Shown here piece by piece: positions 30,587 to 38,698 of a stretch of 64,000 bases of DNA. Under the pieces are notes generated by a model. That model had not been told where the DNA came from. It saw only the letters and a program-made list of their open reading frames with translations, and ran no database searches. Where the stretch lies: sequence record SRR22947727_2846, one strand, 5' to 3'. Position 1 is the first letter of the stretch. Every line of letters begins with the position of its first letter. Both the position numbers and the translations under genes were made by a program.

Positions 30587-30719
30587 GGCTCGCGGGGCTG
30601 GAGTGTCCGGTGTCGAGGTCGAATCGTGACATAATGTGGAGGAAGGCCCTGCGAGTTCACATCCGTGAAACTTGACAAGGGTTTTCTTACTGCCCGTCAC
30701 ACAGTGGAGCAGGTGGCTT

Positions 30720-32519
30720 ATGGCTCAACGCACACCGTCCGAATCTCGTGCGGGAAAAAAGCCACAGAAACAGAGTCTTCTGGATCGTGTCCGCGGTTTT
30801 GGGCGTGGTTCTTCACAAACTGACAAGAAAGCAGCACCAACACCTGTGACCCCAGCAGCGAAAAAGCCCGCCACAAAGTCCGCACCTTCGAAGCCTGCTT
30901 CCACCCCAGCAGCCAAGAAAACTGCCGCAAAGAAGGCTCCCGCGACTAAAGCGCCAGCGCAAAAGGCACCTGCAAAGAAGCCTGCACCTGCGAAATCCGC
31001 CGCCCCAGCTCCTGCGGCGAAGAAGCCTGCAGCGAAAAAGCCGGTTGCCAAGAAGCCCGTTGCCCAGAAACCGGCAGCGAAGAAGCCTGCAGCAAAGAAG
31101 CCTGCGGTGGCAAAGTCTGCTGCTCCCAAGACCGCAGCCGCCAAGCCGACTACGAAGGCTCCCGCGAAGAAAGCTGCACCAGCCAAGGCGTCGACCGCGA
31201 AAGCTGCCGCTTCCAAAGCTCCTGCAAAGAAAACTCCCGCGAAAGCGGCTGCCGCGAAGGCTCCAGCAAAGGCCACACCTGCCAAGAAAGCTGCACCTGT
31301 TGCTCCCAAGTCGAGCGGTGCCACACGGGGCAAAAAAGCTTCGTCTGCGGCCGGTGTTCTCGACGGCGATGGGGACGATGAGCCCGACGTCATCGAGGTT
31401 GAGGATAAGTCCGGTGACACTGAGACCGATGTAGTTCCTGACGCTGTCGCAGAGAAACTGGGTGCCGAGATCATTGCCGGGCTTGCGGAAGCTGCTCTGG
31501 ATGACGAGGACGAGGTCGAAAAAGCTGTGCTGCCGCAGGGCGCCCTCGTGCTCTCGAGCACAGATGACGATGATGCACCCATCATTTCCACGACAATTAC
31601 CGGCGCCACCGCGGATCCTGTCAAGGACTACCTGAAGCAAATCGGTAAAGTCGCGCTCCTCAATGCTGAGCAAGAAGTGGAGCTCGCGTTGCGTATCGAA
31701 GCCGGCCTGTTTGCGGAAGAGAAGCTCTCCTCGCTCACCGCGTCACAGCGCACTACGAAGCTCGCGCGTGAACTGCACGAGATTGCGAAGGATGGCCAGC
31801 GGGCTAAGAACCACCTACTGGGAGCAAACCTGCGTCTGGTGGTGTCGCTGGCGAAGCGCTACACCGGTCGAGGAATGCAGTTCCTGGACCTCATTCAAGA
31901 GGGAAACCTTGGTCTGATTCGTGCTGTCGAGAAGTTCGACTACACCAAGGGCTTCAAGTTCTCGACCTACGCCACCTGGTGGATCCGGCAGGCGATCACG
32001 CGCGCCATGGCCGACCAAGCTCGCACGATTCGTATCCCCGTGCACATGGTCGAAGTCATCAACAAGCTCGCTCGTGTGCAGCGCCAAATGTTGCAAGACC
32101 TCGGTCGCGAGCCCACGCCGGAAGAGTTGGCTCGCGAACTGGACATGACGCCCGAAAAGGTCGTCGAAGTGCAGAAATATGGCCGCGAGCCCATCTCCCT
32201 TCACACCCCCTTGGGCGAGGACGGTGACAGCGAATTTGGTGATCTCATTGAGGACACCGAAGCAGTGGTTCCTGCGGATGCAGTGGGATTCACCATGCTG
32301 CAACGCCAGTTGGAAATGTTGCTCGATTCGCTCTCAGAGCGCGAAGCCGGCGTGATTCGTATGCGCTTCGGTCTTGGCGATGGCATGCCCAAGACCTTGG
32401 ATCAAATAGGAGACACCTTCGGTGTTACCCGTGAGCGCATCCGCCAAATAGAGTCCAAGACGATGGCGAAATTGCGCCACCCGTCCCGCTCGCAGGCTCT
32501 TCGCGACTACCTCGAGTAG
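30720..32519 (+). CDS. sigA: principal RNA polymerase sigma factor (SigA/HrdB) with long Lys/Ala/Pro-rich N-terminus
   Basis: [49 protein letters not shown] and TRERIRQIE motifs. Confidence 0.97.
31017..31106 (+). repeat. in-frame 15-bp tandem repeat encoding (A-K/Q-K-P-A/V) x6 within the sigA N-terminus
   Basis: gcgaagaagcctgca-like units; protein reads [30 protein letters not shown]. Confidence 0.8.
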
Positions 32520-32524
32520 GCCCT

Positions 32525-33796
32525 GTGGGTAAGTTTCCCTCGTTCGTTATCGCGAAACTTTTGCGGTTTCTCACGCGATTGCGTGGAGGGGGCTCGGCGT
32601 TCCCCGGCCTTGCACTCCTGAGAATGCGTCCCGATGTTCTCTCGGAGACCCTCGGAGCACTGCCACGCGGCACTGTGTTTGTGTCAGGGTCGAATGGAAA
32701 GTCGACGACCACCACAATGATGGCGTCCCTGATGCGCGCTCATGGTGTCTCCGTATTCACCAATCCCGCCGGCGGAAACCTGCCACAGGGCCTGGCGTCC
32801 GCGGTAGTGGGCGCTGCCAGCGTCACAGGTCGTGTCTCTGCGGACATCGCTGTCCTCGAGGTTGACGAGGCATACGCGGGCATGATTGCCGATGCCCTCG
32901 CTCCTGACTGGGTGGTGTTGACCAATCTCCAAGTCGATCAGCTCAATCGCTTCGGTGAACCCGAGAACGTGTATCGAATGCTGCGTGATCTTGCTGCTCG
33001 TGCACGAGTAGGTGTGATCGTCAATGCTGCGGATGCCAACCTTGTGGCGTTGGGAGCTGAGGTAGCTGGTGACGGCTCAAGGGTCGAGTTCGTCGACCTG
33101 TCCTCAGATGCTCTCGCCAGCGCCGCTCACGGTGTCGTGGCGGCACCACTGTTTGCTGAGGCGCCGGAGAGACTCCCTGGTGATTCCCTCGCGACCTTGG
33201 TCTCGACAGAAGGCCAGCGGGCGACAGTGAGACTCGGTGGCAGCACTTTCGAGCTCGATCTCCCCGCTCCTGGTTTGCATTACGCCGTGGATGCTGCACT
33301 CGCGCTGGGATGCCTGGCTGCGGTCCTCGGGAAGCCCATCGACCTCGACGCTGTGGGCACGGCAATGAGCGCTGGAGCGCCGGTCTATGGGCGCGGCGAG
33401 GTCATTACCCACAAGGGCGCGCAGATAGCGCTCACGATGATGAAAAACCTCCCCAGTTTGCAGGTCAACATCGATGCGATGAGCCATTCGCCGGAGCTTG
33501 TCTGGGTTGCAGTAGACGAGGGGACCCCCGATCCCTCCTGGCTCTATGAAGTCGATCTGGGCCCGATCGACCATGTGGACGTCCTCACCGGCACCAAAGC
33601 GTGGCAGTGGGCTGTCTTCCTCGACTACCGAGGGATTCCTTATGGCCAGGTCATTGAAGACTCCGCGGAGGCCCTCGCCGCCGTGCGATCGATGGCTCTG
33701 GAACGAGGCGTCACGGTATCGGCCATCGTCAATTACGAGCAGATGATGCTTATTCGGCGGCTTGCCGGCTATAAAGAACTTGAGGGCGCGCGATGA
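32525..33796 (+). CDS. murT: MurT-type Mur ligase (lipid II isoglutaminyl synthase family, DUF1727 C-terminus), divergent
   Basis: GSAFPG, GSNGKSTT P-loop, LEVDEA, NLQVDQLNRFGE, YGRGE, KN and DPSWLYEVD motifs; followed by a gatD-like gene. Confidence 0.88.
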   Translation: MGKFPSFVIAKLLRFLTRLRGGGSAFPGLALLRMRPDVLSETLGALPRGTVFVSGSNGKSTTTTMMASLMRAHGVSVFTNPAGGNLPQGLASAVVGAASVTGRVSADIAVLEVDEAYAGMIADALAPDWVVLTNLQVDQLNRFGEPENVYRMLRDLAARARVGVIVNAADANLVALGAEVAGDGSRVEFVDLSSDALASAAHGVVAAPLFAEAPERLPGDSLATLVSTEGQRATVRLGGSTFELDLPAPGLHYAVDAALALGCLAAVLGKPIDLDAVGTAMSAGAPVYGRGEVITHKGAQIALTMMKNLPSLQVNIDAMSHSPELVWVAVDEGTPDPSWLYEVDLGPIDHVDVLTGTKAWQWAVFLDYRGIPYGQVIEDSAEALAAVRSMALERGVTVSAIVNYEQMMLIRRLAGYKELEGAR

Positions 33797-34524
33797 CCCA
33801 GTGGTTCACCATCGCGAGAGTTCTTCCCGAGCGTCTCGGGCTGAATGGAAGCTCGGCATCTGCCGAGATTCTCGCCATGACATTGCGCCAGATGGGCCAT
33901 GAGGCGTCCATTGTTGATATTCATGGTCCAGCTGACGCGCCCAGCACCGTTGACATCGTGACCATCGGTAGCGGCTCTACCTCGCAACTTGCCCCTGCGG
34001 CGACAGATTTGATCGCTCTCGTGCGAACTTTTCAGCATTGGAAGAATTCTGGGGCGCACTGGGTTGCCATCGGAATGGGCTGGGATCTCCTGGGGGAGTC
34101 CTTGATGACTGCAGAGGGAGACAAAGTCCCTGGCGCAGGAATTTTTCCCTCTCGTGCCGATTACCGCGCCGGGAGGTTATCGGGCGAGGTTCGAGGCTCT
34201 GACTTCAAAGGTCGCGAGAGCGCCGGCTATATCAATCAGGTTGGCACGACTGAGTTGAAGGACGATGTAGGGCCGCTCATGACGCTGGAGGGTGCGCCCG
34301 AGGGATGGCCTGAACAGGAGGGGCTTCGTGCGCCACAACTGTTCGCCACCAGGCTTGGTGGGCCAGCGCTGGCCCTCAATCCGCACTGGGCGCTCGACAT
34401 TGTGACCGATGTGCTGGCGTCACGCGGGCTACAGCCACAACTTAACGATTTTCACACCCGCGTTGAGTCTGCGGCGGCTCGCGCACGAGCGTTGATCGTC
34501 GGACGGCTTAGTTCTCGTCGATAA
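33793..34524 (+). CDS. gatD: GatD/CobQ-like type 1 glutamine amidotransferase homolog, catalytic residues apparently lost
   Basis: GatD layout and GPxLxxNP motif kept, but AIGMGWDLLG replaces AICGGYQLLG and TRLGGP replaces TYxHGP; 4-bp overlap with murT. Confidence 0.8.
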   Translation: MTQWFTIARVLPERLGLNGSSASAEILAMTLRQMGHEASIVDIHGPADAPSTVDIVTIGSGSTSQLAPAATDLIALVRTFQHWKNSGAHWVAIGMGWDLLGESLMTAEGDKVPGAGIFPSRADYRAGRLSGEVRGSDFKGRESAGYINQVGTTELKDDVGPLMTLEGAPEGWPEQEGLRAPQLFATRLGGPALALNPHWALDIVTDVLASRGLQPQLNDFHTRVESAAARARALIVGRLSSRR

Positions 34525-35581
34525 ATTTTCGCGGCACGTGGGGAGCGAGCGAGGCCACCACCTCATCGCCGATCGTGTTGGCCCACGAGGCCCAGTCCTC
34601 GGCGCGAGGTGACGCCCCCTGTGGGTCACCCCAAAGCGTGATCCACTCACCCACTGGCGGAAGGGGTGAATCGCCCTCGGAGTGAATGATGAGGTGATCG
34701 GCGTCCACCGTCTCTATGGGGTAGCGAACTCCGTGGTGGCTGACCCAGCCGAGGCCAGCCTGCGGGGGTAAGAGCCCATCGCCAAATCCCATTCCGAGCG
34801 TCGCCCTGTCGCCTTGTGGGCTGTGGGAGAGCACCTGAGCGTGAACGGACATCACGGGTTCGAAGCCCATGTCCTGAGCTGTGCGGTCATCGAAGGGTGA
34901 CACCCCGTACACGATGATGCCAATACGAACCATGTCGAGTCGGGTTTCAGGTAAGTCCGCTGCAGCGGCGGACGCCGCAATGTGAAGAAGGGACGGAGAC
35001 AGCCCCGCATCCCGAGCGATGGCGACAGCGTCCTGGAATCGTTGCAGGGAGGACCTGTCCTCCTCCAGTGAGGTGTCCGCAAGGTGGGACCAGATTCCGA
35101 CGACAGTGATGTGACCCTCGGCCTCCAGGGCAGCCGCGTGACGCACGAGTTCTGGCCAGTGCTCTGCCAATGCTCCGTTTCGGTGGAGACCAGTGTCGAT
35201 TTTGAGGTGAACACGGGTGTTCATCGCTGGAGCCTGTTCCACCAGAAGATCGAGTTGCCAGCTTCCAGAAATTCCGAGGTCCAGTTTTGCCCGAGCTGCG
35301 GCACCGAAGTCACTCGTGGGGGAGTGCAGCCAGCACAGCAGGGGTAAGTTCGGCTCGGTCTCCCGCAGGGCTATCCCTTGGGCGATGTCGAGTACGGCGA
35401 GAGCGTCGGCGCCCGCTTCACGGGCGGCGCGGGCGAGGGCCTGGGCACCATGACCATACGCCTCGGACTTGACCGCGATCATGAGCTGGGCATCACCGGC
35501 CAGCGTGTCCTTTGCGTGGGAAACGTTGGCCCGAAATGCCGGGAGCGAAATTTCCGCGTAGCAGCGAGGTGCTAGTTCCAT
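34508..35581 (-). CDS. alanine racemase family protein with intact PLP barrel and degenerate C-terminal domain
   Basis: AVKSEAYGHG (PLP Lys38), HLKIDTGLHRNG, WSHLA and DMVRIGIIVYG motifs; no VSYG Tyr motif. Confidence 0.88.
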   Translation of the reverse strand: MELAPRCYAEISLPAFRANVSHAKDTLAGDAQLMIAVKSEAYGHGAQALARAAREAGADALAVLDIAQGIALRETEPNLPLLCWLHSPTSDFGAAARAKLDLGISGSWQLDLLVEQAPAMNTRVHLKIDTGLHRNGALAEHWPELVRHAAALEAEGHITVVGIWSHLADTSLEEDRSSLQRFQDAVAIARDAGLSPSLLHIAASAAAADLPETRLDMVRIGIIVYGVSPFDDRTAQDMGFEPVMSVHAQVLSHSPQGDRATLGMGFGDGLLPPQAGLGWVSHHGVRYPIETVDADHLIIHSEGDSPLPPVGEWITLWGDPQGASPRAEDWASWANTIGDEVVASLAPHVPRKFIDEN

Positions 35582-36222
35582 ATTTTGACCACCCGGGGCG
35601 CTAGCTGGGCGATGAGGAGCGCCACCGGACGAGAGGACCACTGTGACCATTCGGTCACGCTGGGATCAGTTCCCCAGATGGTCACCACGTCACCAAGATC
35701 GGCCGATTCATCTCCGATGTCGAGAACCATCTGGTCCATGGCGATCCGACCGGCAACCCTGTGTCGGATGCCGCCGAGAGAAACTTCGCCTTTCATGGAC
35801 GCGCTTCTTGGCACTCCGTCGGCGAATCCCACGCTCACCAATGCCAGGGTCGTTTCAGACGTTGTTCGGTACTGATAGCCATAGGACACCGGAGTTCCCG
35901 CGGGCACACGCTTCAGGGACACGACATCGCCTTCCAGGGTCACGACGGGACGAGGCGCTTCCAGCCAGCTTGTGGAACCAGGGGCTTCCTGTGACGTGGG
36001 GCTCAGAACAGACGCTTCTTTGTCTGCGGGTGAGTGCAGCGCCTGCGCCACACCGGCATCGCGAGCCAGTGCGCTCACGCGCTCAATGCCCAGGCCGTAC
36101 GCGTTGCAGCGCAAGTCGGGGATGAGTTCCCGCGAGGCCAGTCCGGCAAACGCTTCAACGAGTGCCTCCTGGGAGAGCAGTGCTCGTCGCAGTGGGGCGC
36201 TCAGACTAGCTGGCGCGGTCAT
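35572..36222 (-). CDS. alanine racemase C-terminal-domain protein with vestigial barrel
   Basis: PVSYGYQY, VGFADGVPR and GRIAMDQ motifs; N-terminal remnant DLRCNAYGLG lacks the PLP Lys. Confidence 0.88.
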   Translation of the reverse strand: MTAPASLSAPLRRALLSQEALVEAFAGLASRELIPDLRCNAYGLGIERVSALARDAGVAQALHSPADKEASVLSPTSQEAPGSTSWLEAPRPVVTLEGDVVSLKRVPAGTPVSYGYQYRTTSETTLALVSVGFADGVPRSASMKGEVSLGGIRHRVAGRIAMDQMVLDIGDESADLGDVVTIWGTDPSVTEWSQWSSRPVALLIAQLAPRVVKIWN

Positions 36223-36439
36223 TCCGTAGGCGGTCTGTCTCGTCGTGCCACCCGACCACCTTGTCGCCTAGCGACTCGCGATACTTGGCCGCGTGGTGAC
36301 CGCAGAACAAAAGTTCACCGCTGGCAAGAGTGACGCGCACATAAGCCTGCGCACCGCAGCTATCGCAGAGGTCCATTGCTCCCAAGGCTGCGGGGGTCTC
36401 GAGGGGTGCTTCTGTTGTCTCAGGTGCTGCGTACGACAT
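36206..36439 (-). CDS. small putative zinc-binding protein (CDSC...FCGHH), conserved near parE in Actinobacteria
   Basis: DLCDSCGAQAYVRV...LLFCGHH pattern; GAGGAG RBS. Confidence 0.85.
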   Translation of the reverse strand: MSYAAPETTEAPLETPAALGAMDLCDSCGAQAYVRVTLASGELLFCGHHAAKYRESLGDKVVGWHDETDRLRNDRAS

Positions 36440-36616
36440 TTCTTCTCCTCGAGCTCGTGTGGGCTGTTGCACTATTCCACCACGCCTTCTTGTCATTCAC
36501 CTGCCAGACTCTCCCAGTTTCGCCGACCGCGTATTGCGCCTTCTCGGCGGTGCTCGGGGTGTGGCGGGGTGGTGAGCAATAGGCTCGGGACGTTAGTTCG
36601 CAAGGAAAGAGAGACC

Positions 36617-38698
36617 GTGGCCTCACAGGATTATTCCGCCAGGCATTTGACCGTACTGGAGGGTCTCGAGGCGGTTCGTAAGCGCCCGGGTATGTACATT
36701 GGGTCCACCGATTCCCGGGGTCTGATGCATTGTCTTTGGGAACTCATTGATAACTCAGTCGATGAATCTGTGGGTGGACACGGGTCGGACATTACGGTGC
36801 AAATCCATGCCGATGGCAGCGTGCAGGTGGGCGATCACGGCCGCGGGGTGCCGGTTGATATCGAGCCTCGCACCGGACTTACTGGTCTGGAGCTTGTGTT
36901 CACCAAGCTTCACGCGGGAGGAAAGTTCGGCGCAGGGTCATACGCCGCGTCCGGAGGACTCCACGGTGTTGGAGCTTCAGTGGTCAACGCGCTCGCAGAA
37001 CGGCTTGATGTTGAGGTCGATCGGGACGGAAAAACCTGGGGTATGTCGTTCCACCGCGGTGAGCCTGGAGTTTTCCATGACACACCAGAGGGTCCCTCAC
37101 CGAGCTCTCCCTTTGAACCTTTCGTGGACGGTAGCGAACTCACTGTCCTTGGCACTGTAAAGAAGGGGGTCACGGGGACCCGCGTGCGATTCTGGCCGGA
37201 CCCCCAAATTTTTGGCAAGGGCGCAGCCTTTACTCCTGCTGAGCTGACCGAGCGAGCCCGCCAAACAGCCTTCTTGGTGCCGGGCTTGGCTATTCATGTT
37301 GATGACCACACTTCTGGCGAGAACGTTCGGACAACGTTCTCGGCCGCGGGAGGCTTGGCGGACTTTATGGAGTTCCTCGCTCCTGATCAACCAGTGGTGG
37401 GTCCGTGGCACTTTCACGGCGAGGGCCAGTTCGAAGAGACTGTGCCGGTTTTGGATGACACCGGAAAGCTCGAGTCACGCGATGTTGTGCGGACTGCCGC
37501 GGTCGACGTTGTCGTGCAGTGGGGCACGGGTTATGACACAGTCCAAAAAAGTTTCGTGAATATTATCCAGACCCCCAAGGGAGGAACTCATCAGCAAGGG
37601 TTCGACCTTGCGCTGGTGAAGACCTTGCGTGCAGAGATCGAGAAGAATGCGCGAAAACTCAAGGTCGGAAAGGACAAGGTCGAAAAGGACGACATTTTGG
37701 CCGGCCTCACCGCAATTATTGCTGTTCGAGTTCCCGAGCCCCAGTTTGAGGGTCAGACCAAAGAGGTGCTCGGTACGCCGGGAATCAAGGCCATCGTGTC
37801 TCAGGTTGTCTCGGAGGAATTGGGCCAGAAACTGACCTCGAGCAAGCGTGAAGACAAAGCATTCGCTGCGCTCTTGCAGGAAAAAATTGTGGCCGAGATG
37901 AAGACCCGTGTCTCGGCGCGCGCGCTGAAAGAAACCCAGCGGCGAAAAAATGCTCTGGAGTCATCGACCTTGCCGACCAAGTTAGTGGACTGTCGGAGCA
38001 AGGAGACCGAGGGGAGTGAGCTCTTCATTGTGGAGGGAGACTCTGCTCTGGGAACCGCGAAACTGGCGCGTGATTCAGAGCATCAGGCACTTCTGCCGAT
38101 TCGAGGGAAAATCTTGAACACCCAGAAAGCCTCTGTTCAGGACATGCTCGATAACCAGGAGTGTGCGGCGATTATTCAGGTGGTCGGGGCGGGTTCGGGT
38201 CGGACGTTTGACGTGACCCAGGCTCGCTACGGAAAAATCATCATCATGTCGGACGCTGATGTCGATGGCGCTCATATCCGTACGCTCCTGCTGACGCTCT
38301 TCTTCCGTTACATGCGGCCCCTCGTGGAGGAGGGCCGAGTGTATGCGGCTGTACCGCCTCTTCATCGCGTCGTCGTGAATGGCCGGGGGAAAGCCCCTAA
38401 AGAAATCATCTATACCTACTCGGAGGACGAGTTGCGGAGTCTCTTAGACGCTCTGCAAAAACAAGGGAAGACCTATCAAGAGCCCATCCAGCGCTACAAG
38501 GGTTTGGGCGAGATGGATGCCGATCAGCTCGCGGAAACGACGATGAACCGCGACAACCGGATGTTGCGGCGAGTCCGCGTGTCCGATGCGGAGAACGCTT
38601 CTCGCGTCTTTGAACTACTTATGGGCAATGAGGTGGCGCCCAGACGAGATTTCATTGTCCAGGGACCGGGACTGGCGTCTGAGCGGATAGACGCTTAG
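36617..38698 (+). CDS. parE: DNA topoisomerase IV subunit B (GyrB paralog)
   Basis: [53 protein letters not shown] and QRYKGLGEM motifs. Confidence 0.93.

Follow-up and report, generated by a model that had tools for sequence, protein, structure and literature searches.

A new variant of MurT/GatD joined to a split racemase in Microbacteriaceae: a candidate for the bridge-building enzymes of group B peptidoglycan

We analyzed a 64,000-nucleotide stretch of sequence record SRR22947727_2846 (the window) and found, between sigA and a parE-like gene, a new variant of the ligase/amidotransferase pair MurT/GatD joined to a split alanine-type racemase. This MurT-like module is a good candidate for the bridge-building enzymes of the wall of its host family, the Microbacteriaceae. 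We give an even chance to the reading that the locus is a cross-bridge cassette, in which the MurT-like protein joins a D-diamino acid to the alpha-carboxyl of D-glutamate, the GatD-like protein is a non-catalytic partner, and the racemase pair AlrS/AlrL supplies the D-diamino acid.

In group B peptidoglycan, cross-links run through the alpha-carboxyl of D-glutamate; this wall type has served as a taxonomic marker of the Microbacteriaceae and some Firmicutes since 1972. MurT works on this same carboxyl, activating it in the D-Glu of stem position 2, and is, to our knowledge, the only Mur-type enzyme that does so. On chemical grounds, the obvious place to look for the bridge ligase is therefore among MurT descendants. 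The walls of several relatives of the window's host have been determined chemically: the close relative Rhodoluna has type B2beta (B10) with D-2,4-diaminobutyrate (D-Dab) and the peptides D-Ala-D-Dab and Gly-D-Glu (PMC4156110), strain SYSU D00978, the source of locus L071, has Dab (PMC12275160), and the wall types of the family include B1alpha, B2beta, B2gamma and B10, with Dab, D-ornithine (D-Orn), D-Lys or L-Lys (PMC7033078, Table 3). At family level, then, the locus belongs to a group B taxon, with a Microbacteriaceae host whose relatives have B-type walls. Our full-text searches, with subscription journals and supplements outside their scope, found no paper linking MurT/GatD to group B walls or to Microbacteriaceae, and no gene for adding the bridge to the D-Glu alpha-carboxyl is assigned in the searchable papers.

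The GatD-like protein lacks the residues for glutamine hydrolysis. When it is aligned with GatD of Staphylococcus aureus and Streptococcus pneumoniae, both positions on which GatD membership was judged are Gly (Gly94 in the Cys94 column, Gly189 in the His189 column), Arg128 and Asn148 are kept, and the match to the GatD model NF045636 is 42 bits, with a cut-off of 400. In a study of the S. aureus enzyme, lipid II amidation was lost in the GatD variants C94G and C94S and almost lost with MurT D349N (PMC6113224). Since Gly occupies the Cys94 position and the S. aureus C94G variant is inactive, the GatD-like protein is, judged by its sequence, incapable of hydrolyzing glutamine. This agrees with the original prediction, made from the window alone, that GatD has lost its catalytic residues and would no longer serve as an ammonia source.

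The loss extends across the family. The nucleophile Cys occurs in 0/97 Microbacteriaceae GatD homologues, a set of 79 named-genome loci, 8 further family loci and 10 loci of other cassette types (79/79, 8/8 and 10/10 without Cys; L115 in the set of 8 and L182 in the set of 10 are poorly aligned), and the residue in that column is G, A or S in the 79 named-genome loci. In contrast, Cys and His are both present in 58/58 alignable loci from other actinobacterial families (27/27 in a class sample and 31/31 in an order sample), with four of the 62 non-family loci unjudgeable (L089, L090 and L097 of the 30 in the class sample; L144, unaligned, in the order sample). Arg128 and Asn148 are kept in about 90% of the family homologues. 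The ratio of nonsynonymous to synonymous substitution rates (dN/dS) of gatD is 0.07-0.10 in comparisons with the relatives L038 and L008, the two to which all our dN/dS values are limited, dS being near saturation beyond them. The gene is under purifying selection, in line with the prediction that GatD is retained alongside MurT.

The ligase core of the MurT-like protein is intact. Its P-loop GSNGKSTTT and E112 are invariant in 29/29 and 88/88 sequences, as expected of a MurT middle domain, and K59, E112, D114, E115, N134, D138, R142, N167, R290, K307 and N308 are kept in 88/88 family sequences; the dN/dS of murT is 0.06-0.08. The counterpart of E112 in S. aureus MurT is the Mg-binding Glu E108 (PMC6113224). 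Around this core, several changes are fixed in the family relative to 62 non-family MurTs: R137, the Arg of RDQLDR, has become V, I, L or F, N256 has become D, and the ADGxDxSW loop has become DEGTPDP-SW, three residues shorter. The protein aligns to solved MurTs over its first ~170 residues only, and its match to the MurT C-terminal domain PF08353 is 16.9 bits, with a cut-off of 25. Against the equivalog models NF045635 and NF052464 it scores 80 and 70 bits, with a cut-off of 800, and residues 1-173 alone are matched. We rejected this low score as a sign of divergence: 0/301 sampled actinobacterial MurTs reach the cut-off, so the model itself is narrow.

The MurT-like protein has a single Cys and therefore no Cys4 zinc ribbon. 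Loss of the ribbon was considered as a defining trait and rejected, since ribbon-less MurTs with a live GatD occur in sister families. A tree of 82 of 150 MurT sequences, a subset from which near-duplicates had been thinned, places the 38 rows without the GatD Cys in a single clade (support 100), sister to the ribbon-less Actinomycetales MurTs that have a live GatD. In the order sample, MurTs with live GatD are of two types that differ in the Cys4 ribbon (L123-L137 versus L138-L142), and the Microbacteriaceae clade branches with the type that lacks it. In the nearest genome (G001, 1.2 Mb), which served as the stand-in for genome-wide checks, the Mur-type ligases are MurC-F, FolC and the MurT-like protein only, and a second MurT was not found.

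Compared with known MurT/GatD (EC 6.3.5.13; S. aureus 6GS2, S. pneumoniae 6FQB and 9SQ9), the locus has the same two-gene operon with overlapping genes, the same truncated MurT N-terminus, the Mur ligase middle domain with its P-loop, a probable MurT-type C-terminal domain and, in the GatD-like protein, the class-I amidotransferase fold. It differs in the missing Cys94 and His189, the missing zinc ribbon, the shorter ADGxDxSW loop and the replaced RDQLDR Arg. Structure modeling supports formation of a complex between the two proteins: the model scores 0.92, versus 0.16 for the best of three controls, a mark reached by 51/78 solved complexes and 2/108 mismatched pairs. At least 94% of contacts are shared between runs, and the predicted local distance difference test (pLDDT) score of the partner is 91 or higher. 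Such a result shows likeness to solved complexes rather than binding, and the pass may reflect likeness only, because MurT/GatD complexes have already been solved. The predicted complex runs through the MurT C-terminal domain, and the modeled interface comprises residues 128, 148 and 189-191 of the GatD-like protein and residues 137, 140-141 and 335-342 of the MurT-like protein. In the model, these coincide with positions changed in the family, which we treat as a lead only.

The neighboring racemase is divided between two genes. Alanine racemases build each active site from a Lys of one chain and a Tyr of the other. AlrL aligns end to end with Streptomyces Alr (1VFH) and has the lysine that binds pyridoxal phosphate (PLP), K38, and a gap at the SYG tyrosine segment, where the ~16-19 residues that would carry the catalytic Tyr are missing. 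Aligned to the same structure, AlrS shows just a remnant of the N-terminal barrel, with Arg38 where the lysine would be, and a complete C-domain with Tyr114. Their TIGR00492 scores are 177 bits for AlrL (cut-off 168) and 94.5 bits for AlrS, and neither chain has both catalytic residues. The pattern recurs in related loci: the AlrL lysine is present in 89/89 aligned sequences (4 gapped), its tyrosine segment is short (0-20 residues) in 83/93, the other 10 being complete Alr paralogues, the AlrS tyrosine is present in 77/77 (1 gapped), and the AlrS lysine is found in 0/70 (R in 62, other residues in 8, with 8 gaps). Both genes have low dN/dS, 0.06-0.09 for alrL and 0.11 for alrS, the latter versus L038 only, as the L008 comparison aligned just 15 codons. 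The nearest genome has a separate, complete housekeeping alr (248 bits).

Because the Lys and Tyr of each site come from different chains, we infer that AlrL and AlrS would be active only as a heterodimer with a single active site. Homodimeric PLP alanine racemases (S. lavendulae 1VFH, Geobacillus 1SFT) share the fold, with Lys from the barrel and Tyr from the other chain's C-domain; in the pair described here each chain keeps one catalytic residue, and AlrS lacks most of the barrel. The ornithine racemase OrnR is reported to be a Fold III enzyme with a catalytic Cys instead of Tyr (PMC13397332). Like AlrL, it belongs to the alanine-racemase superfamily and lacks the usual Tyr in the chain, and it acts on a basic amino acid. 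In OrnR the Tyr is replaced by a Cys of its own chain (PMC13397332), whereas AlrL offers no residue for that role and has AlrS, which bears a Tyr, as its partner. The phrases "split" or "heterodimeric" alanine racemase had 0 occurrences in the literature searched, with supplements outside its scope. Separately, in phmmer comparisons with the PDB, AlrS residues 31-65, in the barrel fragment, reach 40-56 bits with TALE-repeat proteins, but only as a sum: no one stretch is significant by itself, and the signal seems to be spurious, built up from numerous weak hits to a repeat-rich target.

The racemase pair is a frequent neighbor of murT-gatD. Linkage could be judged in 70 of 79 named loci, the other nine ending too early, and the pair lies beside murT-gatD in 67 of the 70. 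In 60, alrL and alrS follow on the opposite strand, convergent with murT-gatD; in 5 (Labedella and others) the pair is co-oriented downstream; 2 show alrL only; and 3 have no pair nearby (L062, L071, L081). Within the window, gatD and alrL converge and their 3' ends share 17 bp (34508-34524). The predicted convergence of murT-gatD on two racemase paralogues with complementary losses is thus confirmed by the open reading frame (ORF) coordinates and the alignments, and the neighborhood recurs across the family.

The stretch between sigA and parE is a variable slot. sigA forms one border in 31/31 slot loci, and a parE-like gene forms the other. In five genomes of one genus without any MurT, the slot instead holds a CofE-like gene, a divergent ATP-grasp gene, and then alrS and alrL. 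The families of CofE (F420-0:gamma-glutamyl ligase) and of the PF14397 ATP-grasp proteins thus supply alternative slot genes in other Microbacteriaceae. The CofE-like gene (231 aa) is a weak, partial match to its family (PF01996, 39 bits; TIGR01916, 24 bits of 181), and the ATP-grasp gene (~340 aa) matches PF14397 with 108 bits; a 362-aa ORF opposite the latter was set aside as spurious. The two genes take the place of murT-gatD at L179 (5221-7005) and also at L178, L180, L181 and L192-L196. The ATP-grasp gene accompanies either murT-gatD or the CofE-like gene, and further slot types are murT-gatD with ATP-grasp and the racemase pair, zinc-ribbon murT-gatD with ATP-grasp and no pair, zinc-ribbon murT-gatD alone, CofE-like with ATP-grasp and no pair, and CofE-like with a convergent pair. 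The CofE-like and PF14397 genes are absent from the window and from the nearest genome.

The zinc-ribbon types represent a second MurT/GatD lineage within the family (L182-L185, L189-L191), whose closest named relatives are Schumannella soli, Pseudolysinimonas kribbensis and Galbitalea. The MurT of this lineage carries a zinc ribbon of four cysteines and the motif NLTRDSIKRNAHP. In its GatD, FTHNALE replaces AVCAGYQ, with His taking the position of the Cys and Ile or Leu that of the His, and no split racemase was found in the genome. In a sample of 151 family genomes, MurT is present in 120, 10 of which match over the N-terminal ~170 residues only (77-89 bits) and correspond to the zinc-ribbon lineage. 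The ATP-grasp gene occurs in 26 of the 151 genomes and the CofE-like gene in 20, and MurT and the CofE-like gene occur together in 0/151. At least seven genera contain both MurT species and CofE-like species, and therefore the exclusion does not stem from one inherited event, with the proviso that related genomes are not independent.

How might such a module work? The MurT-like protein would have its origin in lipid II isoglutaminyl synthase and would still work as an ATP-dependent Mur-type ligase, most probably activating the D-Glu alpha-carboxyl (stem position 2), as MurT does. Because the GatD-like protein can apparently no longer make ammonia, the acyl-phosphate would be attacked instead by the amino group of an amino acid, here the bridge-forming D-diamino acid of the group B wall, be it D-Dab or another. 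The GatD-like protein would stay on as a non-catalytic subunit, and the amino acid to be added may be bound in what was once its glutamine pocket (Arg128, Asn148). The D-diamino acid would be made by a putative PLP racemase that works only as an AlrS-AlrL heterodimer, its one site assembled from Lys and PLP of AlrL and Tyr of AlrS. A similar logic is seen in Enterococcus faecium, where the D-aspartate ligase Aslfm and the aspartate racemase Racfm serve the cross-bridge: a racemase makes the D-amino acid, and a dedicated ATP-dependent ligase adds it to the peptidoglycan precursor. Aslfm and Racfm belong to the ATP-grasp and Asp/Glu racemase families, however, and the acceptor there is the Lys side chain, not the D-Glu alpha-carboxyl.

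That the MurT-like protein joins an amino acid is the simplest account because the glutaminase is dead, the ligase is intact and conserved, a racemase is linked, and another carboxylate-amine ligase is swapped in within the same slot. As far as sequence comparison can tell, the evidence supports amino-acid ligation to peptidoglycan over amidation. The degree of confidence in the D-Glu bridge itself is tempered by several observations that weigh against it. MurT is missing from 31/151 family genomes, 20 of which have the CofE-like gene in the same slot and 11 of which have neither. The slot is empty or nearly so, with sigA adjoining parE, at four loci (L197-L200, in G532, G495, G544 and G541); no match to MurT, the CofE-like gene or the ATP-grasp gene was found in G532, G495 or G544, no extra Mur-type ligase was found in the cassette-less G532, G495 and G500, and the total of such ligases is just five in G532 and in G495. 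The MurT-like protein is consequently not a universal group B enzyme, as family genomes exist without it, some with an empty slot and five Mur-type ligases. A search for the diaminobutyrate aminotransferase TIGR02407 in the nearest genome and three empty-slot genomes gave only generic class-III aminotransferases below cut-off and decides nothing.

The racemase adds further counterexamples. murT-gatD occurs without the split pair in Clavibacter, L071 and L062, with tandem complete alr paralogues elsewhere. The L071, L062 and L081 genomes (loci L202/L206, L203/L208 and L205) each carry two complete tandem alr paralogues, all with Lys and Tyr; the three organisms are strain SYSU D00978 (L071), Clavibacter sp. 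VKM Ac-2872 and an uncultured member of the Microbacteriaceae. One alr-family gene of SYSU D00978 has been reported as a vanT-like hit, yet the strain is vancomycin-sensitive (PMC12275160). The split racemase is absent from 10/10 tested genomes whose slot lacks the pair (8 with one alr hit, one with a second complete alr, one with a hit and a fragment), which counts against the simple version of the reading. The most-sampled genus (g2) has the pair in 7/7 genomes, which would be unexpected if the pair strictly tracked D-type bridges and g2 holds L-Lys types. Two residues also give pause: the His position of GatD is still His in about 43% of family homologues, and D336 of the MurT-like protein, which sits in a DxSW motif, may yet correspond to the Asp that MurT contributed to the inter-subunit triad, D349 in S. 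aureus, since the shortened loop can be aligned in more than one way as to which Asp went. The original prediction of a group B bridge module, then, holds up in its residue losses, family restriction, GatD retention and pair linkage, and is weakened by family genomes without MurT or with an empty slot. The part that had dead GatD tracking the group B family stands on the Cys counts inside and outside the family and is limited by the 31 MurT-less genomes.

Of the alternatives, the one that survives best is a serious rival, although unlikely in our view: an amino-acid ligase with another acceptor or donor, such as a Gly spacer, another precursor carboxyl or a non-peptidoglycan wall-linked polymer, with the racemase serving that pathway. 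The same evidence for ligation over amidation applies to it, the cassette varies in ligase number (one or two) and in the presence of the racemase so that roles could be split differently, and the wall types of the family are as diverse as listed above. However, the MurT-like protein descends from the only Mur-type enzyme known for the D-Glu alpha-carboxyl, and the 1.2-Mb nearest genome has one unexplained ligase for one unexplained ligation. Rather improbable is that the MurT-like protein still makes D-isoglutamine from free ammonia, with the GatD-like protein as scaffold only and the racemase pair as an unrelated neighbor. The ligase core is indeed intact, and the conserved D336-P-S-W, in its loop three residues shorter, would fit such an enzyme, but the group B alpha-carboxyl carries the bridge, as chemotaxonomy and the Gly-D-Glu and D-Ala-D-Dab peptides indicate (PMC4156110), the racemase linkage is kept across genera, co-oriented arrangements included, a CofE-like ligase of amino-acid type replaces murT-gatD in the slot with 0/151 genomes having both, and residues near the acceptor site are remodeled family-wide. 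We give almost no credence to murT-gatD being a decaying remnant of MurT/GatD without present function: most invariant GatD residues are lost and the genes are missing from 31/151 family genomes, but dN/dS is 0.06-0.10, the ORFs are intact in 97 loci, the genes are kept in streamlined 1.2-1.8 Mb genomes, and the ligase invariants are fully conserved.

The host of the window, a tiny marine actinobacterium, is a Pontimonas-like member of the Microbacteriaceae, as its MurT-like protein is 98% identical to a protein of a Pontimonas metagenome-assembled genome (MAG); the family assignment made from the window was correct. The 79 best MurT loci from named genomes are likewise mostly from Microbacteriaceae or unclassified actinobacterial MAGs, the exceptions being three Cellulomonadaceae MAGs, two Micrococcales MAGs and one record titled Streptomyces. 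The layout of the locus is compact (Table 1). The sigA stop (32519) lies 5 nt ahead of the murT GTG with no terminator-like site seen between the two genes, and sigA and murT are probably co-transcribed. The murT/gatD junction is an ATGA overlap, and the alrS stop overlaps the alrL ATG by 10 nt.

Table 1. Features of the sigA-parE slot and its borders in the window
Feature	Position	Strand	Match or remark
sigA, principal sigma factor, upstream border of variable slot	30672..32519	+	NF004561, 766 bits
murT-like, ATP-dependent ligase, 423 aa	32525..33796	+	Mur_ligase_M, 44 bits
MurT-like P-loop GSNGKSTTT, residues 55-63	32687-32713	+	
MurT-like family-specific changes V137 and N141	32933-32947	+	
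MurT-like short loop DEGTPDPSW, residues 331-339	33515-33541	+	
gatD-like, without glutaminase residues, 243 aa	33793..34524	+	GATase_3, 38 bits
GatD-like Gly94 (nucleophile Cys position)	34072-34074	+	
GatD-like Arg128, retained	34174-34176	+	
GatD-like Gly189 (His position)	34357-34359	+	
alrL, alanine-racemase paralogue	34508..35581 (likely ATG 35581; longest ORF to 35650)	-	Ala_racemase_N and partial C domain
AlrL PLP lysine K38	35468-35470	-	
AlrL short segment where Tyr region is missing	34775-34849	-	
alrS, 216 aa	35572..36222	-	alanine racemase C domain only
AlrS Arg38 (PLP lysine position)	36109-36111	-	
AlrS catalytic Tyr114	35881-35883	-	
parE-like (topoisomerase IV / gyrase B-like), downstream border of slot	36293..38698	+	NF004189, 737 bits

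The two border genes have peculiarities of their own. SigA has an N-terminal extension (~residues 59-224) with weak, sub-threshold matches to the basic, low-complexity HC2 (PF07382, 31.7 bits, cut-off 40) and to Extensin_1, and region 1.2 starts near residue 315. In the parE/gyrB-like ORF, taken from its first GTG, ~108 residues precede the start of the family-model match; the true start may be further downstream, or the protein has an N-terminal extension.

It is tempting to go beyond the window and read the sigA-parE slot as a mix-and-match cassette that encodes the wall chemotype. Three unrelated ligase families (the MurT-like protein with dead GatD, the CofE-like protein and the ATP-grasp protein) and a split racemase would be swapped within genera, with one ligase for each bridge residue, a Gly spacer included or not, and the presence of the racemase marking a D- rather than an L-diamino acid. 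The chemotype variation of the family, in D or L diamino acid and subtype, may run parallel to racemase presence and one-or-two-ligase content. We regard this broader proposal as tentative, possible rather than probable. If it is true, gene content would predict the B1 and B2 subtypes, which have spent fifty years in taxonomy without known genes. If the favored bridge reading is true, the locus would show plainly how an amidotransferase complex can turn into an amino-acid ligase that keeps a pseudo-enzyme subunit, and its racemase would exemplify an active site shared out over two genes. Family-wide glutaminase death, a linked racemase and in-slot ligase replacement make the old question of group B peptidoglycan directly testable.

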